64,000 nucleotides of DNA from Candidatus Woesearchaeota archaeon B3_Woes (GCA_005222965.1 NJBG01000001.1:270323-334322), one strand, 5' to 3'. Shown: positions 1-40,918, numbered from the stretch's first letter. Translations and numbers: made by a program. Notes: generated by a model not told the origin, from the letters alone.

Positions 1-666
1 CTTTTTATGCACAGAAAAAACTCTAACCTGATTAACAAGGTGAATCTGATTAGTCAAAGCTGGGTCCAAAGCAACATTTTTTTCTTTTAGTTTTGCAATT
101 AAATTACCTAATCCAATACCAGGGCTTTTCTCTAAAATGTCTTGGCCAGTAACATCATAATACTTTCTATGTAAAGCAGCCTCTAAAACCCTTCCGCATA
201 ATATAACAGAACTTCTATAGCATTCATTTTTATAACATTTTTCTAATTCTTTCAAATCCAAAACAACATCCGATCTAATATCAGATGGAATATTCTTTGG
301 AATCTTAATAAAAGATTCTTTCCTTTCAGAAGGAAAAGTTATATATTTTATCAACAAATCAATCTTTTTAATAAATTTCTGTAATTCCTCAATATTTGTT
401 GTATCTAATTGAGGCAGAATTTCCATAAGGTGATTAAGTTTTTCCTGTCCAACAGCACTATCCTGTACAATAGTCTGTAATTGTAATGGGGCATTTTTTA
501 CCTTCTTTATGGCCTTTTGTAATGCTTGTTGATAGTATTTTCTTTGATTTAAATCATAATCCAACATTGCCTTATTAGGGTCTATATGTTTGTCTAACTG
601 AACATTATGTTTAACAGCAGTTTCTAATGCGAATTTTAATTGTTGAAAATCTTTTTTGAAACTCAT
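1..666 (-). CDS. DUF4145/HEPN-like domain protein, 3' end runs off the window
   Basis: Not in ORF track; manual translation from ATG at 666: MSFKKDFQQLKF...ELEKCYKNECYRSSVILCGRVLEAAL...GLGNLIAKLKE...NQVRVFSVH. The pattern is typical of DUF4145, with an RxxxxH motif. Confidence 0.75.
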   Translation of the reverse strand, partial: MSFKKDFQQLKFALETAVKHNVQLDKHIDPNKAMLDYDLNQRKYYQQALQKAIKKVKNAPLQLQTIVQDSAVGQEKLNHLMEILPQLDTTNIEELQKFIKKIDLLIKYITFPSERKESFIKIPKNIPSDIRSDVVLDLKELEKCYKNECYRSSVILCGRVLEAALHRKYYDVTGQDILEKSPGIGLGNLIAKLKEKNVALDPALTNQIHLVNQVRVFSVHKK

Positions 667-746
667 TTTAATACCTCAAGATTTCAACCTTGAAAACTTT
701 AATTTTCATTGGTTGAAAATCTTTTTTAAATCCCATATTTATACCT
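642..746. repeat. Imperfect tandem duplication (70-bp period) of the gene start and RBS region
   Basis: gttgaaaatctttttt...cat...atacct occurs at 642-676 and again at 712-746. Confidence 0.85.
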
Positions 747-7980: not shown

Positions 7981-8271
7981 ATGAAAAAGTATCCAAAAAT
8001 CGTACAATGTGATAAGAGGGGTCAGATAGTAATACCCAAAGATATAAGGAGGGACCTAAAAATTGATGAAGGTACAGGTTTTTGGATGTATTCTGTCACA
8101 AACGAAGGAATTCTTCTCAAAAAAATTGATATTCTGCCATTAGACGAAAATGAAGAGATGTTAGATGAAATCGAATCAAAATCAGACAAACTAAAAATCA
8201 AAAAATCAAATGTTTCAAACTCAGTTAAAAAATACAAAAAAACAAAAGATGGAAATTTAGAAGTAATATGA
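7981..8271 (+). CDS. AbrB/MazE/SpoVT-family DNA-binding protein
   Basis: DKRGQIVIPKDIRRDLKIDEG...GILLKK. Confidence 0.9.
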   Translation: MKKYPKIVQCDKRGQIVIPKDIRRDLKIDEGTGFWMYSVTNEGILLKKIDILPLDENEEMLDEIESKSDKLKIKKSNVSNSVKKYKKTKDGNLEVI

Positions 8272-21802: not shown

Positions 21803-22269
21803 TCAAAAATTATACTAAAAACAAATTCATTTTCATTTTTATAAAAATGTTCTTTTAGTACTGTTTCGTGTTTAAATCCTAATTTTTCATAAAAAGCATG
21901 AGATTCTTTATTTGTTGATCTTGTTAACAGAAATACTTTTCTTACATTTGCATCATGTTTTTTATATTCCTCCTCAATATCTTTCATCATTGATTCAAAT
22001 AATTTTTTTCCTGTTCCTTTTCCTCTTGCTCCTTTTAAAGTTACAATATGGTATAACTCCACTAATCCGTGTTTTGGTCTTCCATGCATAATCCATGATA
22101 CTAGTCCTATTATTTTTCCGTTTTCTTCTGCGACAATGTAATTATCTCCTTTATTTATTTCTTTTAAAAAAGATTGTTCTGCCTCTTCTATCTTATCAAC
22201 ATTCAATAGTTCTAATAATACTTCTGCAACCTTTTCTTTGTCCTCTGTTGTTGCTTTTCTTAATATCAT
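21799..22269 (-). CDS. GNAT N-acetyltransferase
   Basis: LRKAT, RGKGTGKKL acetyl-CoA loop, N...FYEKLGF; ATGA overlaps with both neighbours. Confidence 0.88.
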   Translation of the reverse strand: MILRKATTEDKEKVAEVLLELLNVDKIEEAEQSFLKEINKGDNYIVAEENGKIIGLVSWIMHGRPKHGLVELYHIVTLKGARGKGTGKKLFESMMKDIEEEYKKHDANVRKVFLLTRSTNKESHAFYEKLGFKHETVLKEHFYKNENEFVFSIIFE

Positions 22270-24083: not shown

Positions 24084-24124
24084 GATATTAAAGAACAAAA
24101 TAAAGGTATATAAGCATTATGAAA

Positions 24125-25876
24125 CTAGATATAGTAATATTTCTCTTTTGTTTTTTGTTCTCTGTCTTTTACAGAATCCTCTTTATTTGCTCTAGGCCTA
24201 TTACTCTCTCCATCTCTTCTAAAAGTAATTTTCATATCTTTTAGGAAAATATTCATACCTTCTTCCATCTCAAAAGGTCCTTTTGCTTCTCCTTCAACAG
24301 CTGGTTTTCCGTCAAAAACCAATAATTTCTGGGAAAGATAATCTAAAAACAATAAATCATGATCAACTATCAAAGCTGTTTTTCCTTTTATCTCCATTAA
24401 ATCTCTTATTATTTTTGAGATGATTAATCTTTGTTCTACATCTAAGTAAGCAGAAGGTTCATCTAATAAATACAAATCAGCATCTTTGCCCAAACAAAAA
24501 GCTATAGAAACTCTTTGAAGTTCCCCTCCTGATAACTCATTTAATTTTTTATTCAGCAAAGGTTTTATGTTTAATGGATTAATTATTTGATTTTCATACT
24601 TCTTAATTACATCTTTAAGCAAGTCCTTTACTATTTTGTTTGATTCAGATTCAAGATATTGTGGTTTATAACTTACTTTTATCTTTTTATCAATCTCTCC
24701 TTTATCTGGTTTTATTTCTTCTGCTAAAATTTTAGCAAAACTTGTCTTTCCAATACCATTCTCTCCTAAAATTCCAACAACATCCTTTCTATATACTTCT
24801 CCTTTTTGTGCTTTTAGATCAAATTTGCCTAATTTTTTTTCAATATCTTTCCATGATGTTAGCATATTATCTTCCTGGCTCTTTATTGGTGGTCTTTTTT
24901 CAAACTTAATCTTATGATCTCTAAATCTCATATTTTCTTCTCTTAAGAATCCCTCTAAGTAAGTATTAATTGCTGTTCTTGTTGCCCTAGGTTGTGCAAC
25001 AACTCCATAACAATTCTCTTTTCCATACATTATATGAATCAAATCAGTCATATAATCTAGAATGATTAGATCGTGTTCAACTACAAGGATAGCTGTATCT
25101 TCATTTGCTAATGATTTTATGAATTTGCTTATATTTATTCTTTGTTTTATATCTAAATAAGATGTTGGTTCATCAAAAATGTATAAATCTGCTTTTTTTA
25201 AGACAGCTGCTGCAATAGCAACTCTTTGTAATTCTCCTCCTGAAATCTTTTTAATATCATTGCCTAATATATTTTCAATATCTAACTTTTTTGCTATTTT
25301 GTCTAATTGTTTTTTTTCATCAACTTTTTTTAATAAATCTTTTACCTTTCCTTTTTCTGCTTTTGGAATTAAATCAACTTGTTGAGGTTTATAACTAATC
25401 TTTATTTTTTTATCTTTAACCTTTTCAAAAAAAGATTGAGCTTCTGTTCCTTTAAAATATTCTATTAACTCTTCATATTTTGCTTCCTTATCTTTTCCTA
25501 GGTTTGGTTTAAGTATTCCTGCTAAAATTTTAATTGCAGTAGATTTTCCAATTCCATTTACTCCTAAAACCCCTACTACTTTTCCAAAAATTGGTGTTGG
25601 TAAACTGAATAACTCAAATTGATTTTTTCCATATCTGTGAATTGGTCTTTCTTTAAGTTCTTCTGGCAAATTTATTATATGAATTGCTCCAAAAGGGCAT
25701 CTTTTTGGACAAATTCCACAACCAGTGCATAATTTTTCATCTATCTCTGCTTTATTGTCTACTTTTGTAATACATTCATCTCCTGCTCGGTTAACAGGGC
25801 AAAGCCTAATGCAAAGATAGTCTCCACATGCATGCGGATTACATTTTTCCTTTTCAACAATAGCTAATCTTGTCAT
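24125..25876 (-). CDS. rli: Ribosome recycling ATPase ABCE1/RLI
   Basis: N-terminal Fe-S Cys clusters; two ABC domains (GVNGIGKS, GENGIGKT, SGGELQR). Confidence 0.96.
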   Translation of the reverse strand: MTRLAIVEKEKCNPHACGDYLCIRLCPVNRAGDECITKVDNKAEIDEKLCTGCGICPKRCPFGAIHIINLPEELKERPIHRYGKNQFELFSLPTPIFGKVVGVLGVNGIGKSTAIKILAGILKPNLGKDKEAKYEELIEYFKGTEAQSFFEKVKDKKIKISYKPQQVDLIPKAEKGKVKDLLKKVDEKKQLDKIAKKLDIENILGNDIKKISGGELQRVAIAAAVLKKADLYIFDEPTSYLDIKQRINISKFIKSLANEDTAILVVEHDLIILDYMTDLIHIMYGKENCYGVVAQPRATRTAINTYLEGFLREENMRFRDHKIKFEKRPPIKSQEDNMLTSWKDIEKKLGKFDLKAQKGEVYRKDVVGILGENGIGKTSFAKILAEEIKPDKGEIDKKIKVSYKPQYLESESNKIVKDLLKDVIKKYENQIINPLNIKPLLNKKLNELSGGELQRVSIAFCLGKDADLYLLDEPSAYLDVEQRLIISKIIRDLMEIKGKTALIVDHDLLFLDYLSQKLLVFDGKPAVEGEAKGPFEMEEGMNIFLKDMKITFRRDGESNRPRANKEDSVKDREQKTKEKYYYI

Positions 25877-25924: not shown

Positions 25925-27781
25925 TTATTCCCAACAAGTTGTTGCTGGAGGTTTATCTGTAACATCAATTACAAAGGCACCAACATTATAATCTTGTTTC
26001 AATTTATGTCCTATCTCATCTAAACATTCCCAGGACATTCTTTCAGGATCAATTGGAGAAACTGGAGAAACTGTCATAAAATCATCTGTTGTTACAGCTC
26101 TTAATACTGCCATTCTCTTATTAGTGTCATATACATCTGCTCCAGATAAAACAAATATTGTTTGAGCAATATTTGGTGTAAATCCATGAGAATAGATTAC
26201 TTCTCTTCCTACATAATCTATTTCTTTAAGTTGATCTATAGTTTCTCTTGTTACTTGTGTTTGTATAAAATTGTCTAAATATTTTTGATCTATTTGATCA
26301 TTTCCTATATCATATACAATTCTATTTATTTTATGAATTTCTTTAGGTATTCTTTGTGCAGCTTCTCTTATCTTATTCCAATATCTTCCGCCTCTTAACA
26401 ATGCTAAGTATGTATAAGTTCTATTATCACCTTGTACACCTACAGTTTTTACAGGCAATACATATCCTTCCAACCCAAACTCAGAAGCAATCTCCTTAAC
26501 TCTATCATTTGTTCTATAAAATTCTTTATTAACCCAATTTGGGAGGCTATCTACAATTCTGATTCCCAATCCTGGACCAGGATAAGGTTGTCTTTCACTA
26601 ATATTTAACGGAAGACCAATAGCTCTTGCAGCTTCTCTTATTTCATCTTTAAATATAAGTCTATTTGGTTCAACAATTCTTCCCTCTTCTCTTAAATCTT
26701 CAATAAATTTACAACCCACATTATGGTGAGATTTAATATTTGCGGCTTTTTTTCCAACACCTTTCCCACTTTCTATTAGATCTGTGTATAGTGTTCCTTG
26801 TGCTAAGAATGTTTTCTTTGAATCAATTCCTTGTTCTTCGCATACTTCCTGCATGAGGGTTCCAAATAAATTTCCAATAGCCTTACGTTTATCTTCAGGA
26901 TCACTCATTCCCTTAACAGCATCAATAAATCTATCTTCTGCGTATTTAACAATTAAATTTTCAACACCTGCTTGTGTTAAAGCTTTTATCACTTCTTCTG
27001 ATTCCCCTTTTCTCATTAAAGCATCTATATATACAAAATATTTTTTTCCAGGTATGTCTGTTTGTGCTAATAATGATGCAACATAGGTTGAATCAACTCC
27101 CCCAGAAACAAAACATAAAACATCATTATTTCCAACAGTTTCTCTTATGTATTCTTTACTTTGTTCAATATAATTTTCCATTGTCCATTCACTACTACAA
27201 CCACAAATGTTATGTACAAAATTAGAAATAATTTGTAATCCTTTTTCTGTATGTGTTACTTCAGGATGAAATTGAACTCCATAAATTCTTTTTTCATCAT
27301 TTGCAATCCCAGCAACATGATATGTTGTCATAGCTATTTGTCTAAAACCTTCTGCAAGGTTTTCTAAATCAACACTATCTCCATGGCTCATCCATCCTCT
27401 TATTTTGCTATCTAAATTAGAAAATAAAGGGTGATTAGAATCTAAAGAAACATCTGTTTCTCCATATTCCTTATCAACTGAATCTCCATATAGAGTTCCT
27501 CCTTCAAGTAAATGATTTGTTAGTTGCATCCCATAACATATTCCAAGAACAGGTATTCCTAAATTAAACAAATTTGGGTCAACAAGTGGTGCATTTTCTT
27601 CATAAACACTCTCAGGACCTCCTGATAAAATAATCCCCTTTGGACTCCTAGTAACAATATCATCTAAGTTAGTATCAAAAGGCAAAATCTCTGAAAAAAC
27701 ATGAGATTTTCTAACAGATTTAGCAATTAGTTGGGTATATTGTCCTCCAAAATCCAATACTAAGATTTCATCCTGCGTCAT
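25925..27781 (-). CDS. guaA: GMP synthase, fused GATase+ATPPase long form
   Basis: LDFGGQY, GICYGMQ, QFHPE, SGGVDS, IKSHHN, PGPGLGIR, KPPATTCWE. Confidence 0.95.
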   Translation of the reverse strand: MTQDEILVLDFGGQYTQLIAKSVRKSHVFSEILPFDTNLDDIVTRSPKGIILSGGPESVYEENAPLVDPNLFNLGIPVLGICYGMQLTNHLLEGGTLYGDSVDKEYGETDVSLDSNHPLFSNLDSKIRGWMSHGDSVDLENLAEGFRQIAMTTYHVAGIANDEKRIYGVQFHPEVTHTEKGLQIISNFVHNICGCSSEWTMENYIEQSKEYIRETVGNNDVLCFVSGGVDSTYVASLLAQTDIPGKKYFVYIDALMRKGESEEVIKALTQAGVENLIVKYAEDRFIDAVKGMSDPEDKRKAIGNLFGTLMQEVCEEQGIDSKKTFLAQGTLYTDLIESGKGVGKKAANIKSHHNVGCKFIEDLREEGRIVEPNRLIFKDEIREAARAIGLPLNISERQPYPGPGLGIRIVDSLPNWVNKEFYRTNDRVKEIASEFGLEGYVLPVKTVGVQGDNRTYTYLALLRGGRYWNKIREAAQRIPKEIHKINRIVYDIGNDQIDQKYLDNFIQTQVTRETIDQLKEIDYVGREVIYSHGFTPNIAQTIFVLSGADVYDTNKRMAVLRAVTTDDFMTVSPVSPIDPERMSWECLDEIGHKLKQDYNVGAFVIDVTDKPPATTCWE

Positions 27782-29611
27782 TTAATGTTTAAAATGTCTC
27801 ATCCCTGTAAAGACCATTGCTATATCATATTCATTTGCTGCTTCTATAACGCTCGGATCTCCATTTGAACCACCTGGTTGAATAACATTTTTAATTCCAA
27901 AACCTGCAACTGCATCTAATCCATCTCTAAATGGAAAAAATGCATCAGAAGCTAAACAACAATCTTTTAATTGAGTTTTAATATACTGTTCTTTTGTTTG
28001 TCCAGCAATTACCTTACTAGCCGAATCCATTAATGTATCATATTCACTTGTTAACATTGCTTTTGCATGCTCTGTTGCTTCCTCTAAATTTGCTAGCACT
28101 TGATATTCCATTTCAAGATTCTCATGAGCTTTTGTTATTGCTAATTTTCCACCAGCATCTTTTCTGTTAGGTTGACCTGCCCCCATTCCTAAAACTTGGT
28201 ATTGGCCAGGTGAATATTCTCTACAAATAACTATAGCATTTGATTTTGTATGTTTAGCTGCTTTCATTGCAAAATCATATAACCCTTCTGAATTTTCTTT
28301 TGGTTTTGTTTCTGTTACAATTCCAACAGTTAATTCTTTTTGGCTATTTTGACATGTCAATTGATATGGTTCTCTAAATAACTCTTCAACAGTATCTGTT
28401 AAATATAATCTACTGTCTCTTTCTTGTTTTAGAATTCCTCCAAGTAGTTCTCTATATTCAATATCTTCAACTACCCCTGCAGCCATATCCCCTACTTCTA
28501 ATATTCTTAAATTTGATTTTGTTTTTTTGCCTTGAACATACTCTAAAGCTTGTGGACTAACACTAGGAGCAATCATTGCTTCAACAAACCACCCTTTTTT
28601 ACCAGTTGTATTTGGTCTATCACAAATAACCTTCATAGTATCAAGATCAACTTCTCTATTAAACGCAATTACACTTCCAAATGCACTAACAGGGTCACCC
28701 TGCCATGCTCTCTCCAATGCATTTTCTAATGTGTCTGCAGTTGCAATACCACAAGGTTCACTATGTTTAATTACAACAACAGTTGGTTGATCTTTATATT
28801 CTTTAACTGTTCGAAGTGCAGCCTCTGCATCTAAAAAGTTATTATAACCTAATGGACCCCCATGAACTTGATTAGCTATAACAGCGTTTGGTTCACTAAT
28901 GTTTGGGTCAACAAACAACCATGATTTTTGATGCCAATTTTCTCCATATCTTCCAAGTTCTTTTCCATCTACAAATTTTCTCCTTAAGGTTTCTTCTCCT
29001 GTAAATCTTCTTGTTAATTCTACTGCGTTAGCAGATCTATAATCAGCAATAGTGTTTATTGCAAATGCTGCTAAGTCTCTCCTAGTCTCTTTTGTTAATA
29101 CTCCATTATTTAAATCCATTTCTGAAATAATAGTTTCATAAATTGCAGGGTCAGCTAATACTCCTACGTGTTTCCAATTCTTTACAGCAGAGATAGTAGC
29201 AGTTGGACCTCCAATATCCATATTTTCAATAATGTCATCTTCAGTTGCACCTGGTTTTGCTGCTGTACTTTCAAAAGGATATAAATTATTTACAACTAAA
29301 TCAATTGAAACAATATTGTTGTCTTTTGCTTCTTGTACATGTTCAGGATTAGATCTATCAAATAAAATTCCACCTAAGATAGCAGGATGTAATGTTTTAA
29401 CTCTTCCATCAAATAATTCTGGATAGCCTGTTACATCTGAGACATCAATAACATTAATATCATAACCGTTTTCTTCAATAATTTCTCTAAGTACCCTAGA
29501 TGTTCCACCAGTTGAAATTATTTCATAATTGTGATGACTTAAACCTTCAGCTAATATATCCAAATTTGTTTTATCAGTTACTGTTATTAATGCTCTATTT
29601 TTTTGATCCAT
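27782..29611 (-). CDS. purH: Bifunctional AICAR formyltransferase/IMP cyclohydrolase
   Basis: STGGT, GRVKTLHP, DIGGP, YGENWHQ, ASDAFFPFRD, IQPGGS, FTGMRHFKH. Confidence 0.95.
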   Translation of the reverse strand: MDQKNRALITVTDKTNLDILAEGLSHHNYEIISTGGTSRVLREIIEENGYDINVIDVSDVTGYPELFDGRVKTLHPAILGGILFDRSNPEHVQEAKDNNIVSIDLVVNNLYPFESTAAKPGATEDDIIENMDIGGPTATISAVKNWKHVGVLADPAIYETIISEMDLNNGVLTKETRRDLAAFAINTIADYRSANAVELTRRFTGEETLRRKFVDGKELGRYGENWHQKSWLFVDPNISEPNAVIANQVHGGPLGYNNFLDAEAALRTVKEYKDQPTVVVIKHSEPCGIATADTLENALERAWQGDPVSAFGSVIAFNREVDLDTMKVICDRPNTTGKKGWFVEAMIAPSVSPQALEYVQGKKTKSNLRILEVGDMAAGVVEDIEYRELLGGILKQERDSRLYLTDTVEELFREPYQLTCQNSQKELTVGIVTETKPKENSEGLYDFAMKAAKHTKSNAIVICREYSPGQYQVLGMGAGQPNRKDAGGKLAITKAHENLEMEYQVLANLEEATEHAKAMLTSEYDTLMDSASKVIAGQTKEQYIKTQLKDCCLASDAFFPFRDGLDAVAGFGIKNVIQPGGSNGDPSVIEAANEYDIAMVFTGMRHFKH

Positions 29612-29633
29612 TTTCTATTTCCTCCATTAAATT

Positions 29634-31490
29634 TTAAGATTTATATCTTCTTAATAATTTCTGAGTTTGTCTTGCATTATCTATCATAACTCTTGTATCC
29701 TCAATAGCCGTTCCAAAAAGGGGTGTTCTAGCTTCATTTTTATTCGCAGCAGCAATTTCTTCTAATAATTGTTCTTGTTCTTCAGGGTCTGCCATATAAA
29801 ATCGATCTATAAGTCCATTAGTGTCCATAACACTATGAAGCATATCTTCCACACGTGCTGCAGTTTTCTCATTAATTACTTTATCTTGCACCATCCTATT
29901 AACATAATCTGTAATCTCTTGTGGCTGAACTCTTGGTTTCATAACAAGATCTTTTATCCTATCATATGCATCAGGTACGTCTCTCTCTTTTAAGTAGGTA
30001 TTTATTGCAGAGGAGATTACTTGTGGCCCAGATTGATAAATTTCGTTCTCTAATGTAACAAAATTTGGTTCATATTTTTTTAATTCACCAATCAATCTTT
30101 TCGTGCCTATAATTGATAACATAATTGGATGAAATAATTCACGTTTTGTGATAGATCTTCTTAAATCTCCTTGTCCCCTATAAGCCACAATCGCATCTTT
30201 TATTGGATTCATCATACTGGTATAAATAGAAACTAGTGCTTCACAACCTTCTGCAAAAAAAGGATTTGTTTTTTGAGGCATAGCAGAAGAACCAGATTCT
30301 CCTTTTTGAGTCAGTTTTGCTAAGATTCCTCTAGATGCATAAAGCCAAACATCTGTTGCGGTTTTTTTTACAACAGATCCAACATTAACTAATACATCTA
30401 GTGCTTGTGCCAATGAGGCATTGCTACAATCCTGATCATTTCCTTTATCAACATAATTAAGACCAAATATATTTTCTACAATTTTCTTATACATTGGAGT
30501 AAAATCTATATCTGGGAATGTTGCTTTCATATCAACATCAGTGCCAATAGCTCCTGAAATTGTACCATCAATTTTGAACATATCTTTTTGTAAAAATGGT
30601 TTTGCATGCAGTTTAAGTTGTTCTGCAAGATTAGCATATACATGACCAAAGTTTTTTAATTGTGCCTTCTGCCCATGGGTTTCTGCTGTAAATGATGCAT
30701 CCATGTATTTTTCTGCTCTTTCTTCTAATTCAGATACAAAATCTGCTAAAACAGAAGTAACTTCTCCTATTGCAGCCATATAAAGTTGTCCTGTAACATT
30801 AGTATTAACATCTGCAGAAGTTCTTGCAAAATGAGTTATCTTTTTCATTAAATTATCATCTAATCCTAATTGTTGTGCCCTAATTGTTATCCAAGTATTT
30901 GCTGCAACAATATCGTGGTTTGTTCTTCTTTCAATAATTTTAATAGCAAGATAATCTTTTGTACGGAATTCCTTGTATATACTTCTTAATGTTTCTTTTT
31001 CTTCTTTAGTAAATGGTCTTTCTACTAAAGGAGTATCTACATCTCCCAATACGTCTACAAGCTCTATAACATATTCAATACCAAATTTCATTCTTCCTTG
31101 AACTAAAGCTTGTTCAGAACTTATATCCTTAAATGGACTAACAAATCTATTATATCTTCCTGTTGTAATCTCTTCAGAATCTCCTTTATCTAAAATAAGT
31201 TCTATTCTTGATTTTTGTTCTCTTCTTTCTGCAAAACCCTCATCAGGAATTCGCATTACTTCATCTAAAAATGTAAATTCTCCTAATCTAAGATTTTTAT
31301 CTAAAAGAAAAGAAACACTACCATCTGAAAAATTATATTCTTTTATTAAGGTTCCTGTTGCTTGTTCTAATTCTTTATTATATCTTTGCTGTAATCTTCC
31401 TTGTTCAACTGTTTCTAATTCAGATTTAGGAGTATCCAAATGTTGACTCAATTGATTTACTAACTCTTCAAAGGGTAGTTCTTGGTTCAT
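29634..31490 (-). CDS. purB: Adenylosuccinate lyase with N-terminal extension
   Basis: TNHD, THGQ and the fumarase-family signature GSSAMPQKTNP; operon context. Confidence 0.88.
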   Translation of the reverse strand: MNQELPFEELVNQLSQHLDTPKSELETVEQGRLQQRYNKELEQATGTLIKEYNFSDGSVSFLLDKNLRLGEFTFLDEVMRIPDEGFAERREQKSRIELILDKGDSEEITTGRYNRFVSPFKDISSEQALVQGRMKFGIEYVIELVDVLGDVDTPLVERPFTKEEKETLRSIYKEFRTKDYLAIKIIERRTNHDIVAANTWITIRAQQLGLDDNLMKKITHFARTSADVNTNVTGQLYMAAIGEVTSVLADFVSELEERAEKYMDASFTAETHGQKAQLKNFGHVYANLAEQLKLHAKPFLQKDMFKIDGTISGAIGTDVDMKATFPDIDFTPMYKKIVENIFGLNYVDKGNDQDCSNASLAQALDVLVNVGSVVKKTATDVWLYASRGILAKLTQKGESGSSAMPQKTNPFFAEGCEALVSIYTSMMNPIKDAIVAYRGQGDLRRSITKRELFHPIMLSIIGTKRLIGELKKYEPNFVTLENEIYQSGPQVISSAINTYLKERDVPDAYDRIKDLVMKPRVQPQEITDYVNRMVQDKVINEKTAARVEDMLHSVMDTNGLIDRFYMADPEEQEQLLEEIAAANKNEARTPLFGTAIEDTRVMIDNARQTQKLLRRYKS

Positions 31491-31492
31491 TT

Positions 31493-32596
31493 TTATGCTG
31501 CCATCTCTATTACCCCATAAGGTTTAAGTGCATCTACTATCTCTGCTCTAGCATCTCCTATTTCAGGAACAGGTTCTCCTGTTATTTTTTCTGCTAATCC
31601 TTTATATAATGCACTTGTTTCCATAAACACACTATCAGGAACTCTATAAGATTCTGCAAGTTGTGTTCTCTCATCCATTCTACTTTTATTTACTAAAACA
31701 TCTCTATCAGGTACACTAGCCTGAAGAGCTTCCCTAAACATTTCTTTAGATTCTTCTACTGTTTGACCTCGTTGATATAACTCCTTATCCCAATATCTTG
31801 AAGAATCTGGTGTTCCAATTTCATCAATATAAATCAATTGTTGTTGACCATCAACTAAAACATAACCAAACTCAAATTTAGTATCAACAAAAACTTTTCC
31901 AACAGCATCAAGTTCTCTATCTATTAAACTAAATCCTTCTGTTAATAATCTCTCATATAATTCTACATCTGCTTGTGATTTAAATCCAAACGCAGTATAG
32001 TTATCTAAAATTTGTTGTCTTGTTACATTAACATCATCTACTTCTGGTACACCAGGTATTCCTCTAAGAAGCCCTTTGGTAGAAGGTGTAATTAATAATT
32101 GGTCTAATCTTTGATCTTTCTTTAAACCTTCCGGAACAGATATACCACAAATTTCTCTATCTCCTTTTTCATAACCTCTCCACATACTTCCTGTAATATA
32201 TTGTCTTGCAATCGCTTCAACCATAACTGGTTCTGCTCTTTGAACAATCCAAACTAAAGGATGAGGTGTAGCTACAATATGATTTCCTGCTAATCCTTCT
32301 TGTTCAAATCTTTCGAACCAATGTTTTGATATTGCATTCAAAGATGCTCCTTTTCCAGGAATACCTTTTAACCCACTTTCAGTTTCCCATGTAAATTCAT
32401 AAGCAGATATTCTGTCACTAATAACTAGGGCGCCCAATTCTGGATTAGATCCACTAAAACCAGTTTGTTCTGCTACTCTTTGACTATCTTCTTGACTAAA
32501 CCAATAAGCAGATCTCACCTTTCCGTCATGTACATCTCCTTGGTGTCTTATTGGTAAATCATTTGTTTTAACAATTGCTAAATTTTCTACAGACAT
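31493..32596 (-). CDS. purC: SAICAR synthetase, long (Vibrio-like) type
   Basis: DLPIR...HDGKVRS.YW, ISDRISA, DTKFEFG, DEIGTPDSSRYW. Confidence 0.93.
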   Translation of the reverse strand: MSVENLAIVKTNDLPIRHQGDVHDGKVRSAYWFSQEDSQRVAEQTGFSGSNPELGALVISDRISAYEFTWETESGLKGIPGKGASLNAISKHWFERFEQEGLAGNHIVATPHPLVWIVQRAEPVMVEAIARQYITGSMWRGYEKGDREICGISVPEGLKKDQRLDQLLITPSTKGLLRGIPGVPEVDDVNVTRQQILDNYTAFGFKSQADVELYERLLTEGFSLIDRELDAVGKVFVDTKFEFGYVLVDGQQQLIYIDEIGTPDSSRYWDKELYQRGQTVEESKEMFREALQASVPDRDVLVNKSRMDERTQLAESYRVPDSVFMETSALYKGLAEKITGEPVPEIGDARAEIVDALKPYGVIEMAA

Positions 32597-32635
32597 TTTT
32601 TACATCCTCCATTTATTTATTTTTTAATGATTAAT

Positions 32636-34006
32636 TTAATTTTTGCTAATTCCACCTATAACTGCAGCTTGTCTATCAACACCTTCAACACTATGTCTAA
32701 AATTATCATTAACGTATTTTACTACTTCGTCTGCAATGTCTGGTGATACTGTTATAGTAAATCCAACACCCATATTAAACGCCTCATACATTGCTTCCAT
32801 ATCAGCTCCATGCTTTCTAAAATGTCTAACAATTGGAGGTAAAGGTAATATTTCTCTTTGAACATCTGCCAGTAATCCCTCTGGAATCATTCTTTTTATG
32901 TTATCGCTTTGTCCTCCTCCTGTTATATGTGCTGTTGCTTTAATTTGTCCTTGATATTTTGAAAGTATTCCTTCTGACTTCTCATTTCCAAACAATATAT
33001 CTGTATATGGAATATGTGACTTTGAGAGCTCTCTTGTTATCGCTTCATGTGTAAGATCCCCTACTTCAGGCTCACCTATCATTTCTAAGTATTTTCTTGC
33101 AAGACTATATCCATTTGTCATTAAACAGTCGGTTGCAAATCCAATTATTACGTCGTTTGCTTTTACATCTTCTCCAGTAATCATATTTTTTTCATCAATA
33201 ACCCCAATAACTGTTCCAGCAATATCAACCTGTCCAGAATTATATTCATCAGATTTTACCATAACATAAGGGTCTAATGCTTTTATTCCCAAAGTATCAC
33301 AAATCTTTTGGGATTTTGCAACAATTTCTTCAAGTGCTCCTTTTTCAACATTTCCTGCAACATATAAAGAAAATGCAACAGGTTTAACACCTATCGCTCC
33401 TAAATCATTGCTTCCATGGTAAATTATATCTCTTGGATCTTTCACAATTCTTGTTTTTGTTCCAGTACCATCAGTACTTCCACAAAGAAGTGGCCTATCC
33501 ATATTTTTTATTAATTTTGCAAGATCTACTGTTGTTCCTTGATTTCCATTAAATAATAAACTAACATAAGCATCTTGTTGTCCTGGTTTATATGTTCCTG
33601 GCATTTCAGCACTCTCTCCACCAATCGTAGGAACGTCATGTTCAAGCAGCCCTTCCTTTGCAATTGCTATTGCAAATGATGGAAACCACTCATTCATATC
33701 GGGACCAGCACAATAATCTAATAATGCAATTGGGGTAGTTCCTTCTTTTATTTGATTAAATGCAAGCTGTGTTACATTTTGTCCCATTTCTTCCGGAGTT
33801 TTTCCTCTAAGAAGAGAAGCACATATAATACCAATTGGAACACTATCTTCTCCTTTAAGGTGACTTATATCTACTGCACCACCAAAAGAACCTTCAGCAT
33901 TTAATCCAAGATCATTAAGTCCTTGTTTTATTCTAGCATTGACTTTATTTTGAGCTATAAGTGAAACTCCTGCATCTGCATAATCTATATCTGAAATATC
34001 TTCCAT
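32636..34006 (-). CDS. purM: AIR synthetase with duplicated N-terminal domain
   Basis: YADAGV, GGESAEMP, STDGTGTK, TNGYSLAR, AHITGGG, FNMGVG. Confidence 0.9.
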   Translation of the reverse strand: MEDISDIDYADAGVSLIAQNKVNARIKQGLNDLGLNAEGSFGGAVDISHLKGEDSVPIGIICASLLRGKTPEEMGQNVTQLAFNQIKEGTTPIALLDYCAGPDMNEWFPSFAIAIAKEGLLEHDVPTIGGESAEMPGTYKPGQQDAYVSLLFNGNQGTTVDLAKLIKNMDRPLLCGSTDGTGTKTRIVKDPRDIIYHGSNDLGAIGVKPVAFSLYVAGNVEKGALEEIVAKSQKICDTLGIKALDPYVMVKSDEYNSGQVDIAGTVIGVIDEKNMITGEDVKANDVIIGFATDCLMTNGYSLARKYLEMIGEPEVGDLTHEAITRELSKSHIPYTDILFGNEKSEGILSKYQGQIKATAHITGGGQSDNIKRMIPEGLLADVQREILPLPPIVRHFRKHGADMEAMYEAFNMGVGFTITVSPDIADEVVKYVNDNFRHSVEGVDRQAAVIGGISKN

Positions 34007-34016
34007 TTTAATCCTC

Positions 34017-34568
34017 CTAATCTATTTTAAGCAATCTTCTTTGGTATTTTTGTCTAATAGTGATATCATCTCCTTGAAGTGATTCAACCTTTCTATAATT
34101 TCTATCATTTAATAAATCTCTAGCGCCAGGATGAACGCTAGAAAACATTTGCGAAAGAAATTTACCAACATTTTCTGGTCTTGCAATATAAGCATTACTG
34201 CTTCCTGGTGGGTTTGTTAAACAAGATTCATTAGGTACATCAGGAGGGCAACTTATAACTGGGTGAAGTGAATGATAAGATACAGTACCTGACAAAGCAT
34301 CTGTTCCTCCTGCTACTGCAATAATCGCAAGAGGTTGATTAAATTGATTGTATTCTCCTATCATTTCCATTAATTTGTCTGGTTGTTTATGTGCTGAACA
34401 CACTCTTACATCATAAGGAATAGCGTGAAATTCAAGAGAGTCTGCTATTTTCTCTATATGTGAAGGTTTACCTTCTTGTTTTGGTTTATCATCGCTTCCT
34501 GAACCAGCCATAATAACTGCAAAACCATGTCCTTGTTCAATTAATTCTCTTATTTGATCATCTATCAT
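34017..34568 (-). CDS. purE: AIR carboxylase PurE, class II-like
   Basis: GSGSD, SAHK, IAVAG, PVISCPP. Confidence 0.85.
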   Translation of the reverse strand: MIDDQIRELIEQGHGFAVIMAGSGSDDKPKQEGKPSHIEKIADSLEFHAIPYDVRVCSAHKQPDKLMEMIGEYNQFNQPLAIIAVAGGTDALSGTVSYHSLHPVISCPPDVPNESCLTNPPGSSNAYIARPENVGKFLSQMFSSVHPGARDLLNDRNYRKVESLQGDDITIRQKYQRRLLKID

Positions 34569-34580
34569 TTTATTTACCTC

Positions 34581-35450
34581 CTATGCAGCACGTTGAAAAC
34601 CTTCATAAGGCATTACTTTGTCATCAACATAAACTCCTCTCCATTCATTGTGATGGATGTTTTCTGTACCTAAAGCAATTCTTCCATTTGCTATCATCTC
34701 TAAAGCTCCTGTTAAAGCAGGCCAATCACTCCTTACCTTTTGCATACTTTGATGAGCATCTGCATATTCTCTTAAACATTCTTCTCGCTCTGCATCTGTC
34801 CCTTGCAAAAATTCATGCCAAACTTCTACTTCTGGACCTTGTGTTAAAATTTCTCCATGATCTACACCTTTATCAACCATTATTACTGAAGATTTTGTTG
34901 ATGTTTCTCCTGCCTTTACTACATCGTAAACAGCATTGTCCCCTACAAAAACCCTATAAAATTCTGGAATACCATCAACTACCTTTTCATGTTGTTTTAC
35001 TATAGATAAATCAGCAGGATGAACATTAATTATTTTATCCTTGTATGCTTCTAGTAAAGGCTCCATAACTAGTCTCATATATCCTCCTAAAACAACTAAA
35101 TCAAAAGGAGCTTCTTGTATTTCTTCATACTTATGTAATAAATCAACAATTGCTTGATTAAACTCTAGACTTCTCTCTTGATATTCTGATTTTAATTGAG
35201 AATTTCCTTGTGCTTTTTTCCAGCTTCCACAAGATTTATACCCATTAATAGATTCCTTCATAACTCCTCTTCCCAATGATAATTCTTCCAAATCAAATAA
35301 ACTAGCACTAGGTCTATCAGAAAATATTAAAGAAGGTGTTATAACTTTAGCACACTCTCTTAGATTAGTTCCACTACCAGAACCAAAACCTGCCCAATGA
35401 AAATCTTCTGGTTTTCCTGAATAAATAGGTATTTTTTCTTCTATTTGCAT
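34581..35450 (-). CDS. purN: GAR formyltransferase
   Basis: GSGSGTNL, LGGYMR, INVHPA, GVDHGEIL. Confidence 0.88.
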   Translation of the reverse strand: MQIEEKIPIYSGKPEDFHWAGFGSGSGTNLRECAKVITPSLIFSDRPSASLFDLEELSLGRGVMKESINGYKSCGSWKKAQGNSQLKSEYQERSLEFNQAIVDLLHKYEEIQEAPFDLVVLGGYMRLVMEPLLEAYKDKIINVHPADLSIVKQHEKVVDGIPEFYRVFVGDNAVYDVVKAGETSTKSSVIMVDKGVDHGEILTQGPEVEVWHEFLQGTDAEREECLREYADAHQSMQKVRSDWPALTGALEMIANGRIALGTENIHHNEWRGVYVDDKVMPYEGFQRAA

Positions 35451-36757
35451 AAAGCCTTTGCTCCAATATCTGTTCTAAAATAAAATGGATGATTATTATT
35501 AAGAGCTATTGTGGCAACATTAATCAAATCTACTGCTTCATAAACTCTTTCTTGAGCTTCTTTCAATCCTTTCGGAGAATATGCAGTAACATCTAAGACT
35601 CTTCCGCCTGTTGCTATTATGTCCCCTTCTCTATCTACTCTAGTTCCTGCATGGAATATTTTAACTCCTTTTAAATCAGAAGCTTCTTCTAATCCCTCTA
35701 TTAAATATCCTGTTTTAGGACTTTCAGGATAACCATTAGAAGCCATAACAACACAGCATGAAGCTCCTGGTTTTAAACTAAGGTCTATTTCATCAAGTTT
35801 TCCATCCAATGCTAAAGATATAGAATCATATAAACTTCCATCGAGCATCATCATTGCAGGTTGAGCTTCAGGATCTCCAAACCTTGCATTAAACTCTAAA
35901 ACCTTTGGTCCATCTTCTGTCATTATCATACCAGCATATAAAAATCCCTTATATTCAGATCCTAAACTCTTCATTTGTTGGACTACTGGTGTCATTACTC
36001 TATCTGCAACAAATCTTAAAACTTCATCTGAAGCAATAGGAGCAGGACCATAAGCACCCATTCCGCCAGTATTAGGACCTTTATCTCCATCTAATAAAGG
36101 TTTATGGTCTTGGAAAGCTGCAGGAATTGTATAAACTCCATTACCATCTGAAAATCCAAAAACAGAAAATTCCTGACCAAATAATCTTTGGGATATTAAT
36201 ACTTCTTCACCATATATTTTAGCATGTTTGGTTATTTGTTCTAGTGCTTGTATTCTTGAATCACAAACATAAACCCCTTTTCCGCCTGTAAGACCATCTG
36301 CTTTAATAACAATTCCTTCAGAAGTTGCCATTTTTATAATGGCTTTTTCAGCTTCCTCTACTGAAAAACACATTTCAAAATCTGCTTGTGGTATGTTTGC
36401 TCTCTTCATTACTTCTGCTGAAAAAAATTTACTAGATTCTAATTTAGTAGCATCTCCTGTAGGACCAAAAACTCTATCATAACCCTCTCCATTAAGATAA
36501 TCAACTAATCCTTCTGCTAAAGGCCCTTCAGGTCCAACTATAGTTACACCTATATTTTCTTTTTCAATTATTTTTAATAAATCAGGAAAATTTTCTTTTT
36601 TTATACCTGATTCAATATGTCTTACTTTTTCTTCTTGTGCTATTCCTGCATTTTCAGCACCAATTTGAATAACTTCTGAAACATCTTTATCTTGAGCAAG
36701 TGTCCAAATTAATGCGTGCTCTCTTCCACCATTTCCTATAACTGCAACATTTTCCAT
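35441..36757 (-). CDS. purD: Phosphoribosylamine--glycine ligase
   Basis: GNGGREHA, VGPE, KADGL..GKGV, GPNTGGMG, EFNARFGDPE. Confidence 0.96.
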   Translation of the reverse strand: MENVAVIGNGGREHALIWTLAQDKDVSEVIQIGAENAGIAQEEKVRHIESGIKKENFPDLLKIIEKENIGVTIVGPEGPLAEGLVDYLNGEGYDRVFGPTGDATKLESSKFFSAEVMKRANIPQADFEMCFSVEEAEKAIIKMATSEGIVIKADGLTGGKGVYVCDSRIQALEQITKHAKIYGEEVLISQRLFGQEFSVFGFSDGNGVYTIPAAFQDHKPLLDGDKGPNTGGMGAYGPAPIASDEVLRFVADRVMTPVVQQMKSLGSEYKGFLYAGMIMTEDGPKVLEFNARFGDPEAQPAMMMLDGSLYDSISLALDGKLDEIDLSLKPGASCCVVMASNGYPESPKTGYLIEGLEEASDLKGVKIFHAGTRVDREGDIIATGGRVLDVTAYSPKGLKEAQERVYEAVDLINVATIALNNNHPFYFRTDIGAKALCK

Positions 36758-36768
36758 TTTAATTCCTC

Positions 36769-37635
36769 CTATAATAAATTTTCAACAACATAATCAATTC
36801 CATTTCTAAAAATTTGTAATCCTAATCCTTCATGAGGTAAATCTCCTGATCTCTTTAACCTATCAGCCACACATGGATGAGATAAATCTATATAATCCCT
36901 ACCAAGTATTTCTTGTAAAGAAGCTAAAGGATGATTACGAGGATGATTATATCTTTCTGGATGAGGCATTAAACCAAGTATTCTTCCAGTTTTATCACAG
37001 ATTCCAGCAATAGAAGAATAAGAACCATTAGGATTATCAGGAAATTTCATTGTAGGATTTCCTTCTTGATCTGCATATTGATATACAACTTGTCCTTGTT
37101 CAAATAAATCTTTAATAGTTGATTCATCAGCTACAAACTTACCTTCACCATGTGCTACAGGCATCTCAATATCATTAACCCCTTTTGTCCATATGCATGT
37201 ATCATTATAACTTTTTAGTCTAACCCATCTGTCTTCAAATCTTTGACTGTCATTATATGTTAATGTAACTGTTTGTTCTTCTGAATTTCCTGGCAAAAAC
37301 CCAGCTTGTACAAGAACTTGAAATCCATTACAAATACCAATAACTAATTTACCATCATCAATAAATTGTTGAACTTCTTCTCCTAAATATTTTCTTAAAT
37401 CCTGTGCAAAACTCTTTCCTGCTCTAATATAATCTCCCTTAGAAAATCCTCCAGGAATAGCAAGAATATGATAGTCATCCAAGCTAACCTCTCTTTGTGT
37501 GACAGAATCATACTTTTCTCTCAAAGAATTAATATGAACTATTTCACTATTTCCTCCTACTAAATCAAAAGCTCTCTTTGTTTCTCTATCACAATTTGTT
37601 CCATCTGTTCTTATTACACAAACTTTTGGTTTCAT
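36769..37635 (-). CDS. purQ: FGAM synthase glutaminase subunit
   Basis: GTNCD, PGGFSKGD, GICNGFQ, AHGEG, MPHPER. Confidence 0.95.
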   Translation of the reverse strand: MKPKVCVIRTDGTNCDRETKRAFDLVGGNSEIVHINSLREKYDSVTQREVSLDDYHILAIPGGFSKGDYIRAGKSFAQDLRKYLGEEVQQFIDDGKLVIGICNGFQVLVQAGFLPGNSEEQTVTLTYNDSQRFEDRWVRLKSYNDTCIWTKGVNDIEMPVAHGEGKFVADESTIKDLFEQGQVVYQYADQEGNPTMKFPDNPNGSYSSIAGICDKTGRILGLMPHPERYNHPRNHPLASLQEILGRDYIDLSHPCVADRLKRSGDLPHEGLGLQIFRNGIDYVVENLL

Positions 37636-37636
37636 C

Positions 37637-40600
37637 TTAATTCTGTATTTCTCCTTTATTTGCTTCTCTTGCTACCTCAACAGTTGTAGAAAAAACTGTT
37701 TTACCATTATATTTCACATTCATCTGATTATCTAAACCAACAATTCCTATTTTTCTTATATAATTTCCTTCCATTTGTTTTTCAAATTCTGCTTGCTGTG
37801 TTGGATGAATTGTTACAACAGATCTTCCTGTTGTTTCAGAAAATAATATTTTATCTGCTCTACCTAAACCTTCATCAAGTGAACTCAAATCTGCATCAAA
37901 TCCAATATCCCCAGACATTGCAGAATTTATAAGACCTTCTGCTAATCCTCCTTTAGTTAAATATCTTACAGAATGAACTAATTGAGATTCTGTTGCTTCA
38001 CTTAAAGAAGAATATCTTGGTTTTATTTCTTCCAAATTAGACTTAGGAACATTTCTTCCTGTTTCTCTTTGCATTAAATAAAATTCACTTCCACCCAACT
38101 CATCTCTAGTGTCCCCTACAACATAAATAAGATCTCCAGGAAGTTTAAAATCACTAGTAGTCAATGTTGAATCATCAGGCATAACAGCCATCGCACTCAT
38201 TAATAATTCTGGTTTTGCTTTTACAGTAACTTTTTTTCCTGTTTTAGTGCTTATATAATCTCTTTGTACTGAGGTGCTGTCTTTACCAGAAATTCTTGGA
38301 GTTCCAAATGCTAACTCAGCATCAGCAGAACCTTTTAGCATTCTAATAACTTGAGCAGCTATATGAGGATCTTCTTCAGGTTTAGGACAAGTAATATTTC
38401 CATTAAATGTCAGTTTATATGTATCTTTATCAGGAAGTTTTCCTCCTGCTGAAATTACCTTTCCAACAGCATCAACGACATTATTAACACCCATGTGATA
38501 AGCATCAATATCCCCCTGCCATGGATTAGACCCCCATGTTTCAATAACAATTTCGCTATGCTCTGGTTCTGGTCTACTAGCAACAACATCATTTTTGCCT
38601 TTTCCCAAACCAACCAAAGGTTTTATTCTGCTTCCTCCCTGAACTTCATGATCAAATCTTGTTACAATCCAATCATAAGTTTGTAAATTTGGTCTTCCTA
38701 TCATTTCTAAAGCAACATCAGTTAAATCCTCTAAAACAGGTAGTTCTGGTTCTTTAAATTCACAAGGCTTCCAATGAGCTTCAATTGTCATTTGAGGTAA
38801 TTCTGTTCCTATAAACTCAATTGGAAGATAAGCTATTGGAGTGTCTTGATCAAGAACATGGTAATCTCCACTATTATTGAAATCACCCATTACTGTTAAA
38901 TCAACATTATTCTGTTCGCAAATTTCTATAACTCTATTCATATTTTCTGGTTTAATAACAAGAACCTCTCTTTCCTGAGCTTCTGAAACAAGCTTTTCCC
39001 ATCCTGTCAATCCTTTATATTTTTCAGGAACATGGGTTAAATCCATTTTTATTCCGCCCTTTCCGTTTGTTTTCGTTGAAAAGATTTCTCCAGATTTGAT
39101 TTCTGACTTTATTTGGTCAATAAAAAGGGAAGCGATTCTATTTACATCAATAACATCAGAAGCAGCTTTTAGTCTATCGTCATAAGAACTTTCTAAAGTA
39201 ATTCCTTTTTCTTCAAAAACATTTTGTAATTCATACCTTTTTTGTTCTAAATCGTTTAATAATTCTGTAAGTTCGCCAACAGCAGAATTCCAACCACCTG
39301 CTCCACAATCTTGAGTAGCTTCAACTAAATCTAATTGTTGTAATAGATTCATAACCTCAAAAACGCCTTTTTCAACAATTGGATCTCCGATTTGTACTGC
39401 CTGACTAACATCCTTTCTTTCTTCTGCATCTGCTTTTATATCAGTTGAAGATGCTGTTGCTCCATGTATTCCATCTTTTCCAACCTTTCCTCCCAAAGAC
39501 ACAGCAACATATCCTGGTCTAATATCTTTTGTATGTGTCTTTCTTCCATTGATTTCAGCTTCAACAGTAGCTAAACCACCTACATAACAAACGCACTTAA
39601 GCCAACCTGGATCAACCATAACATTTCCACAACTTGTTGGAATTCCCATCTTATTTCCATAATCTTCAACACCATCAACCATCCCTTCTAATGTTCTTGT
39701 AGGAGTTTGTATATCAAGTGGGAGATCGTTATAATAATTAGGATGAGCAACTCTAAATCCATATTGACTTAAACGAACAATCATTCCCTTTCCTACACTT
39801 ATAAGATCCCTAAGGATTCCTCCAACACCAGTATTTGACCCACCAAAAGCATCTAAAGCAGTAGGAAAATTGTGTGTTTCAACCTTATGAGAAATATTTA
39901 TCCTATCGTTTAATTTTATAGCACCTGCATTATCTTCAAGTACAGAAACAAGCCAATCGATCCCTTTAGCTATCTTTTGTGTTGTTTCCTGTATCATTGT
40001 TTTAAAAACATTATCAACAACAGGGGGTAATTGGGATTCGTCATTTGAATCTTCAGAAGTGTATTTCCAAATTGCTTTTAATTTTTTATGAATGCAATGT
40101 TCAGACCAAGATTGTCCAAAAGCCTGTAATTCTGCATCTGTTGGTATTGCCTTTAATCCTGCTTTTTCTCTTCTTGCAATAAAATCAGGATCATAAGAAC
40201 CATCATATAATCCTTTTATTTTGCTGAATTCTTCTGAATTCAATTCTAACATCATTGCATTGCTTAATTCCCTTAATTTTCCAGAACTTATATTAATATC
40301 AACATATTCAAACGCTGGAATTTCTGGTAAATCAACAACAGGGAAATGAAATCCAATACCATTTGAAGTCCATTCGCTACTATCTATTTTAAGAAAATCA
40401 TTGATAAGAGGATTGCCTATTTGTTTTTGTAAAAGAATATAATCTGTTTCATTTAGTTCTCCTCCCCACAAGTATTGTTCTGAAAATGATACAGGTCCAA
40501 TTTCTCTATCTAAAACTTTTTGTATTGCGTTTCTTGCTTCTTTTCCTTCAGGATCATTCACACCAGGTCGAGGGGATTTTTCTATAACTGCTTCGTTCCG

Positions 40601-40795
40601 AGCTGGTTTTAATAAAGGGCTATCAGTTGAAAATACATCAACAACAGGGTCTGCAAGAAGTTCTTCAATAGCTACTATTTCTTCATTTGTAAAGCTATCA
40701 TCAATATTATATACTTTTATGGGTTGTTGTAGAATTAGGCCATCAGAATCACTAGTAAATTCTTCTCTAGACATCACTTCTATCCTTGTGCCCAT
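37637..40795 (-). CDS. purL: FGAM synthase PurL, with N-terminal PurS-like extension
   Basis: WSEHC, DNAG, KVETHNFP, DGIHGA, VQIGDP, DCGAGG, SEAQER, ISGKDS. ATG at 40795 follows a G-rich RBS; the track gives 40816. Confidence 0.93.
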   Translation of the reverse strand: MGTRIEVMSREEFTSDSDGLILQQPIKVYNIDDSFTNEEIVAIEELLADPVVDVFSTDSPLLKPARNEAVIEKSPRPGVNDPEGKEARNAIQKVLDREIGPVSFSEQYLWGGELNETDYILLQKQIGNPLINDFLKIDSSEWTSNGIGFHFPVVDLPEIPAFEYVDINISSGKLRELSNAMMLELNSEEFSKIKGLYDGSYDPDFIARREKAGLKAIPTDAELQAFGQSWSEHCIHKKLKAIWKYTSEDSNDESQLPPVVDNVFKTMIQETTQKIAKGIDWLVSVLEDNAGAIKLNDRINISHKVETHNFPTALDAFGGSNTGVGGILRDLISVGKGMIVRLSQYGFRVAHPNYYNDLPLDIQTPTRTLEGMVDGVEDYGNKMGIPTSCGNVMVDPGWLKCVCYVGGLATVEAEINGRKTHTKDIRPGYVAVSLGGKVGKDGIHGATASSTDIKADAEERKDVSQAVQIGDPIVEKGVFEVMNLLQQLDLVEATQDCGAGGWNSAVGELTELLNDLEQKRYELQNVFEEKGITLESSYDDRLKAASDVIDVNRIASLFIDQIKSEIKSGEIFSTKTNGKGGIKMDLTHVPEKYKGLTGWEKLVSEAQEREVLVIKPENMNRVIEICEQNNVDLTVMGDFNNSGDYHVLDQDTPIAYLPIEFIGTELPQMTIEAHWKPCEFKEPELPVLEDLTDVALEMIGRPNLQTYDWIVTRFDHEVQGGSRIKPLVGLGKGKNDVVASRPEPEHSEIVIETWGSNPWQGDIDAYHMGVNNVVDAVGKVISAGGKLPDKDTYKLTFNGNITCPKPEEDPHIAAQVIRMLKGSADAELAFGTPRISGKDSTSVQRDYISTKTGKKVTVKAKPELLMSAMAVMPDDSTLTTSDFKLPGDLIYVVGDTRDELGGSEFYLMQRETGRNVPKSNLEEIKPRYSSLSEATESQLVHSVRYLTKGGLAEGLINSAMSGDIGFDADLSSLDEGLGRADKILFSETTGRSVVTIHPTQQAEFEKQMEGNYIRKIGIVGLDNQMNVKYNGKTVFSTTVEVAREANKGEIQN

Positions 40796-40918
40796 ATATT
40801 CCCCTTTAATAACCATTTTATAAGCTTATTTATATACTTTTTCATAATTTTGTCGTCCTAAACATGGGACAACTAACAAACCAAAAGATTAATAAGAAAT
40901 AACCAATTTTATTACAAA

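Follow-up and report, generated by a model that had tools for sequence, protein, structure and literature searches.

What happens to an enzyme whose active sites are built between subunits when one of its domains is duplicated within a single chain? In textbooks PurM, ThiL, HypE and SelD are obligate homodimers whose subunits share active sites; in canonical PurM the N domains of two subunits form an eight-stranded barrel, and both active sites mix residues from each subunit. The question is raised by a gene within a stretch of 64,000 nucleotides from Candidatus Woesearchaeota archaeon B3_Woes (the window), which lies in a purine operon and encodes a PurM homologue with two N-domain copies ahead of one C domain (hereafter two-N PurM). 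The results presented here suggest that this gene is probably the organism's AIR synthetase (PurM) and that the protein forms a pseudo-dimer within a single chain, with one composite active site, for which the canonical dimer interface would be unneeded.

The open reading frame comprises 456 amino acids plus stop in the order arm, first N domain (N1), linker, second N domain (N2) and C domain, and is preceded by a ribosome-binding site, AGGAGG, 5-6 nt upstream of the ATG (Table 1). A sequence-only reading of the window had drawn attention to the span 33180-34006, which corresponds to aa 1-276 and hence to both N copies. All of the best sequence and fold matches of the protein are PurM, with E values down to 3.4e-41 for PurM chains in the PDB. 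Its score against the NCBIfam equivalog model TIGR00878 is 173.9 bits, below the cut-off of 236.35, and that match is split by the extra domain into two stretches. The gene is the sole PurM of the host genome (1.02 Mb, 96% complete): a six-frame profile search found AIRS and AIRS_C in PurL and in the two-N frame only. A purF-like frame and a purA frame lie elsewhere in the genome, and the set of pur genes is otherwise complete.

Table 1. Positions of the two-N PurM parts, its motifs and the genes of the purine operon, counted from the first nucleotide of the window.
Feature	Residues or length	Position	Strand	Basis or location
N-terminal arm	aa 1-45	33872..34006	-	translation
YADAGV	aa 9-14	33965-33982	-	arm
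Glycine loop FGG	aa 41-43	33878-33886	-	arm
N1 core	aa 46-153	33548..33871	-	phmmer, Pfam AIRS aa 87-139
LDY	aa 96-98	33713-33721	-	N1
GGESAEMPG	aa 129-137	33596-33622	-	N1
Linker N1/N2	aa 154-170, 17 residues	33497..33547	-	translation
N2	aa 171-278	33173..33496	-	Pfam AIRS aa 174-270
DGTGTK	aa 179-184	33455-33472	-	N2
NDLGAIGVKP	aa 200-209	33380-33409	-	N2
DIAG	aa 261-264	33215-33226	-	N2
C domain, single	aa 279-456	32639..33172	-	Pfam AIRS_C
MTNGYS		33104-33121	-	C domain
Met296, before TNGYS	aa 296	33119-33121	-	C domain, mapped by motif
HITGGG	aa 360-365	32912-32929	-	C domain
FNMGVG		32762-32779	-	C domain
Purine operon		25925..40816	-	co-directional; Pfam and NCBIfam scans
purL		37637-40816	-	Pfam/NCBIfam
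purQ		36769-37635	-	Pfam/NCBIfam
purD		35441-36757	-	Pfam/NCBIfam
purN-like	289 aa	34581-35450	-	Pfam/NCBIfam
purE-like	183 aa	34017-34568	-	Pfam/NCBIfam
two-N purM	456 aa + stop	32636-34006	-	between purE-like and purC
purC		31493-32596	-	Pfam/NCBIfam
purB	618 aa	29634-31490	-	Pfam/NCBIfam
purH	609 aa	27782-29611	-	Pfam/NCBIfam
guaA	618 aa	25925-27781	-	Pfam/NCBIfam

The architecture and the distribution of motifs within it agree with what the sequence-only reading had described. It had judged the protein about 100 residues longer than usual, and the ~110 extra residues are those of a second N domain. It had expected a Pfam scan to return two AIRS domains and one AIRS_C, with one normal C domain after the N copies; AIRS (PF00586) matches the whole protein at 40.3 bits, above the cut-off of 24, in two stretches, and AIRS_C (PF02769) scores 43.1 bits (cut-off 23.1) in a single stretch, aa 283-433. 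Scored separately when the genome was searched in six frames, the AIRS stretch of N2 (aa 174-270) reaches 27.8 bits, above the 24-bit cut-off, and that of N1 (aa 87-139) falls below it at 17.6 bits. The first copy had been said to keep YADAGV, FGG, LLDY and IGGESAEMPG while lacking DG(V/T)GTK and the Asp of Dx4GxxP; in the translation all four are present, DGxGTK is absent, and Gln occupies the Asp position (..AFNQIK..). The second had been said to keep STDGTGTK, NDLGAIGVKP and DIAG while losing LDY and GGExAEMP; the former are likewise in place, and SLY and LDPYVMVKS stand where the latter two would be expected. Alignment with phmmer pairs residues 27-152 of G. kaustophilus PurM (2z01) with query aa 25-143 and residues 54-324 of the same chain with query aa 169-435, so that one stretch of the PurM N domain is matched twice. 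Family profiles of N1 and N2, each built from 51 members, align to one another in hhalign with a probability of 95.6% (E 1.1e-8, 108 columns, 17% identity), and profile comparison thus indicates that the two copies are homologous.

The 51 sequences are the full-length relatives, the query included, that were returned by a word-indexed search (448-505 aa, 29-72% identity, spanning 94-100% of the query) together with four fragments; searching representatives at 50% identity exhaustively brought in more distant long forms. A set of 264 proteins was then scanned with HMMs for N1, N2 and C, and the presence of non-overlapping matches to all three defined 66 two-N proteins. This count would be 67 with P0151 (1339 aa), which was rejected as a member and left out of the census because it is an FGGY-family sugar kinase joined to two complete PurM units, N-C-N-C. 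Named homologues come from Aenigmarchaeota, Nanoarchaeota, Woesearchaeota and Pacearchaeota records and are annotated as hypothetical protein, AIR synthase-related protein or cyclo-ligase, the duplication being unremarked in the source annotations. From these records the host is taken to be a DPANN-type archaeon. An artefact of assembly or annotation is ruled out by the recurrence of the architecture in 66 independent homologues. In one relative of 722 aa from a Pacearchaeota record (P0254), a two-N PurM is joined to a PurQ-type glutaminase (GATase_5, aa 2-265), a fusion that unites parts of pathway steps 4 and 5.

Searching 401 sampled genomes of the window's phylum with N1 as query gave matches in 14. 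The one strong match was in the window's own genome (E 2e-80, open frame 461 aa); the remaining 13 were weak and lay in frames of 335-419 aa, as expected for ordinary PurMs. Among 301 genomes from the phylum of the Aenigmatarchaeota record, frames of two-N size (465-486 aa) were found in three and frames of ordinary size in six, and the best 80 loci in species-representative genomes included two two-N forms, the remainder being ordinary. No second PurM was found in the two other two-N genomes searched, where AIRS_C occurs in PurL and the two-N form only. From these counts the two-N form is rare, with a scattered distribution, and takes the place of the ordinary enzyme where present.

Trees of the N2-C columns keep the two-N proteins together: a FastTree branch with a support of 93 separates all 65 two-N rows from the rest, and an IQ-TREE branch with an SH-aLRT of 95 does the same for 25 two-N rows. 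Free trees from the C-domain columns alone scatter the two-N rows (8 and 7 changes), and for the same columns an AU test did not reject a single clade (p 0.906). Non-two-N proteins were represented in the trees by those of 320-365 aa; P0254 and P0151 (both >600 aa) were left out, as was P0049, a two-N fragment that happens to be of canonical length (336 aa), and the sets for IQ-TREE and the AU test held 40 of the 133 canonical rows (38 random, 2 chosen) and 6 of the 46 core two-N rows. A single origin of the two-N form is compatible with these sequence data rather than proven by them.

Conservation across the family bears directly on how the motifs are shared between the copies. Each N1 and N2 was aligned to a canonical N-domain HMM built from 131 ordinary PurMs, and the residues at the motif positions were counted (Table 2).

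Table 2. Occurrence of canonical N-domain motif residues in the two copies of 66 two-N proteins.
Residue	N1	N2
DGxGTK Asp	9/66	66/66
DGxGTK Thr	5/66	66/66
DGxGTK Lys	10/66	66/66
Dx4GxxP Asp	outside the five commonest residues (4/67 with P0151 counted)	66/66
LDY Asp	65/66	0/66
GGE first Gly	65/66	6/66
GGE second Gly	66/66	Gly outside the five commonest residues
GGE Glu	65/66	5/66
Ala of GGExA	66/66	4/66
DxAG Asp	46/66 (+ Glu in 15)	66/66

Patterns that require no alignment give the same division, D[GS].GTK occurring in none of the 66 N1 copies and in every N2, and G[GD][ED].A[EQ]M in 63 of the 66 N1 copies and in no N2. From the census and these counts it follows that each copy retains what its partner copy has lost. 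The complementary pattern persists in members with only ~28-30% identity to the window protein, and because architecture and motif split recur in all 66 homologues it is beyond chance. Both the LDY Asp and GGExAEM belong to the conserved consensus of canonical PurM, and N2 contains the Dx4GAxP ATP-binding signature as D201-LGAI-G206-VK-P209, the motif being named as a signature in passages of two papers (PMC2978367, PMC13013826). Outside the two cores, the arm residues Y9, V14, G39, F41 and G43 show no variation in the 51 sequences, and F[GSA]G occurs in N1 of 64 of the 66 two-N proteins; in the C domain T297, G299, H360, T362, G363, G365, N369, N411, G413 and G415 are invariant in the 51-sequence alignment.

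The full-length chain was predicted with AlphaFold2 from the same alignment of 51 sequences at a mean pLDDT of 93.1 and a pTM of 0.92, with no segment below 50, and is modelled as one compact unit. The linker, aa 154-170, has a pLDDT of 96-98 and forms a short helix at 163-166, and strands and helices follow the same order, beta-alpha-beta-alpha-beta-beta, in N1 and N2. A model of the divergent member P0150 in the ESM Atlas is also confident (pTM 0.90). In the PDB the full model is matched best by PurM chains, aligned through N2-C; P. abyssi PurM with FGAR and AMP (9k05_A) matches with Z 33.1 and an rmsd of 2.1 Å over 302 residues, the alignment spanning 6..456 of the model and 1..321 of the chain. 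PurM chains reach at most these 302 aligned residues, fewer than the 345 aligned with T. thermophilus PurL (model 46..456, chain 73..693). When aa 1-281 were folded alone with four homologues drawn from loci (5 sequences; pLDDT 79.3, pTM 0.82), the 21 best VIA-align matches were all PurL/FGAM synthetase, from T. maritima, T. thermophilus, Salmonella and human, and covered approximately residues 47-281 of the model and both N-like subdomains, as in T. maritima PurL 59..513 of a ~600-residue protein. The parallel with pseudo-dimeric PurL that the sequence-only reading had drawn is thus reflected in the model, whose N1 and N2 fit the paired N-like subdomains of PurL over 205-223 residues with Z 14.5-16.3. 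PurM monomers rank next, none exceeding Z 11.7 or 148 aligned residues.

According to a passage in PMC2978367, the PurM (AIRS) dimer superposes on T. maritima PurL with 2.9 Å over 433 C-alpha atoms. Since the modelled N1-N2 pair matches PurL and PurL matches the PurM dimer, the pair is predicted to resemble the N-N' barrel of the dimer, and we infer from the models that N1 pairs with N2 within one chain. The AlphaFold placement may lean on learned PurL-like structures. The alternative is that the protein is not monomeric, either because N1 pairs with N2 of another chain in head-to-tail dimers or filaments, or because pseudo-dimers associate through new surfaces. A linker of 17 residues would on its own still permit N1 and N2 of different chains to pair, and passages in three papers (PMC2978367, PMC6416309, PMC7595633) describe the characterised members of the PurM superfamily besides PurL as dimers. 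Against this, AlphaFold sets N1 on N2 in one chain with the high pTM and linker pLDDT given above, and the truncated model, despite its 5 sequences, returns the same intra-chain pairing, so we regard a non-monomeric arrangement as unlikely. A homodimer prediction with two full-length copies, run without controls, scored 0.00 (mark 0.42) and is evidence neither way.

The pairing of N1 with N2 suggests how a composite site could be assembled. The active-site cavity of PurM lies at the dimer interface, as stated in part of PMC2978367, and a section of PMC8449271 has the ATP ligands contributed by both monomers, one monomer giving the Dx4GAxP Asp and the His of HITGGG, its partner the LDY Asp together with the Gly-Glu of GGE. 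The N-domain core has been duplicated in tandem, and in the proposed mechanism N1, preceded by the arm with its glycine loop, would take the place of the partner subunit by pairing with N2 inside the chain. N2 and C would supply the residues of the C-domain side (DGxGTK, the Dx4GxxP Asp, DxAG, TNGYS and HITGGG), and N1 those of the partner side, namely the LDY Asp and GGExAEM. The symmetry-related second site would have been erased with the loss of its C domain and all of its motif residues, leaving one active site per chain and no requirement for the canonical dimer interface. Everything that a second site would need is indeed missing: the chain has no further C domain, N1 is without the residues of DGxGTK and Dx4GxxP, and N2 is without those of LDY and GGE. 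Conservation shows one C domain and one complete set of motifs per chain, and because this set is the only one, a single site per chain is predicted, as against two in the canonical enzyme. The earlier proposal that the duplication supplies both halves of the site in cis is accordingly favored by the two AIRS stretches and single AIRS_C, the complementary motif retention conserved in 66 proteins, the compact model and the fit of N1 and N2 to the PurL pair, and it stands as a model-based prediction.

One element departs from a clean split between the two sides. The same partial source, PMC8449271, places the Asp of DGVGTK on the monomer that also carries LDY and GGE, and this misfits because two-N PurM has DGxGTK in N2 and LDY and GGE in N1. 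It also describes the Gly adjacent to this Asp as contacting FGAM from both monomers, and a passage of PMC2978367 reports a conserved sulfate near the DGxGTK motif, between the two domains of a monomer. Whether the two-N family is in addition a minimal catalyst of the PurM superfamily, a true monomer of three subdomains (N', N and C) with the second site erased, is a proposition to which we give about even odds.

The proposed active-site residues of the E. coli enzyme are Asp65, Asp94, His190 and His247 in the numbering given in part of PMC3261824. Mapped by motif, D179, D201 and H360 are equivalents of the E. coli active-site residues and are invariant, and the position of His190 is taken by Met296. 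Met is found there in 45 of the 66 two-N proteins, compared with His in 101 of 136 canonical PurMs; the pattern H[TS]NG[YFL] occurs in 15 of 66, all of them divergent members. This substitution of Met in the core clade, the TIGR00878 score under the equivalog cut-off and the adjoining purN-like and purE-like genes, which also score far under their NCBIfam cut-offs, would be accommodated if AIR synthetase function had been lost in favor of a different activity of the PurM superfamily. Such a change is very improbable given that this is the only PurM-like gene beside an otherwise complete pur set, that all of its best matches by sequence and by fold are PurM, and that one full set of PurM-specific motifs is kept. 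Still harder to credit is the idea that N1 is a mere structural stand-in for the lost partner, with catalysis wholly from N2-C, for although two of the family's Asp residues are gone from N1, N2 is without the LDY Asp and GGExAEM (0/66 each), N1 keeps them (65/66 and 63/66), and such conservation over ~28-72% identity is unexpected for a scaffold.

The preferred reading, a single-chain pseudo-dimer, can be set against the known members of the superfamily. The canonical PurM homodimer (PDB 1cli, 5vk4, 9k05) shares fold, motifs and pur-operon context with two-N PurM, and its chains match N2-C with Z 28-33, rmsd 2.0-3.1 Å and 24-33% identity; there two subunits provide the site residues, whereas a chain of two-N PurM, with its second N domain, carries both sets. 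ThiL, HypE and SelD have the same two-domain fold (Z 18-23) but act on other substrates and carry a single N domain per chain, and homodimers of this type have their active site at the dimer interface, according to passages in PMC6416309 and PMC7595633. Internal duplication is also seen in P0151, where the whole N-C unit is repeated and not, as in two-N PurM, the N core only. Drosophila GART contains a tandem duplication of full-length PurM. To our knowledge PurL is the one known single-chain pseudo-dimer of the PurM superfamily. Its synthase domain (FGAM synthetase; PDB 2hry, 3viu, 1t3t) is a pseudo-dimer that arose by gene duplication. Like two-N PurM as modelled, PurL has two PurM-like N subdomains per chain, paired with pseudo-2-fold symmetry, and its one catalytic site is formed by three subdomains, as described in a portion of PMC13013826. 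The same portion reports that PurL has kept its two C-like subdomains, along with an auxiliary ADP site as its second; two-N PurM, which would manage with three subdomains where PurL has four, differs in having one C domain, in the loss of second-site residues from N1 and N2 and, by Pfam scan, in having neither the PurL linker nor its N-terminal domain.

Searches of the full-text literature, covering abstracts and selected passages, found no description of a PurM carrying two N domains. As a conserved form, N-N-C would show that three subdomains with a single site are enough for the fold, would assign the conserved PurM motifs to same-side and partner-side roles without mutagenesis, would offer a simple asymmetric scaffold for half-of-sites study or engineering and would bear on the origin of PurL. 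If the family does represent a minimal monomer, it would be a living model of the step from a homodimeric ancestor to PurL-type pseudo-dimers, and its complementary decay would be an evolutionary map of the C-domain-side and partner-side motifs of PurM. The family is missed by current equivalog models because the TIGR00878 score is below the cut-off, and as a result purine synthesis might seem to have gaps in those few DPANN-type archaea that possess the pathway.

Other genes of the pathway in this genome have features of their own. PurL (1059 aa) contains the FGAR-AT linker domain typical of large PurL and no glutaminase domain, and a PurQ-type glutaminase gene of 288 aa lies directly downstream, such that the two (36769-40816, minus strand) look like a split form of large PurL. 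The matches of the purN-like and purE-like genes, at 51.2 bits against an NCBIfam cut-off of 150.1 and 56.9 bits against 149.6, each cover only part of the protein, and these may be divergent or remodelled enzymes. The best PurF candidate is a 475-aa frame at G000:C1:561055-562434 with 147.7 bits against the TIGR01134 cut-off of 350, and the PurA frame, 597 aa, is at G000:C1:798198-799769. This frame, PurB (618 aa), PurH (609 aa) and GuaA (618 aa) are all unusually long for enzymes of these types. Following guaA on the same strand with short gaps (20372-25876, minus strand) are ABCE1/RLI, glmS, a GNAT acetyltransferase and a phosphoglucomutase-type gene; the window also encodes a GCD14-type tRNA methyltransferase along with the ABCE1/RLI-type ATPase. 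Two giant open reading frames lie on the plus strand, one of 3771 aa at 8268-19583 and one of at least 2471 aa at 56587-63999, which runs past the window end.
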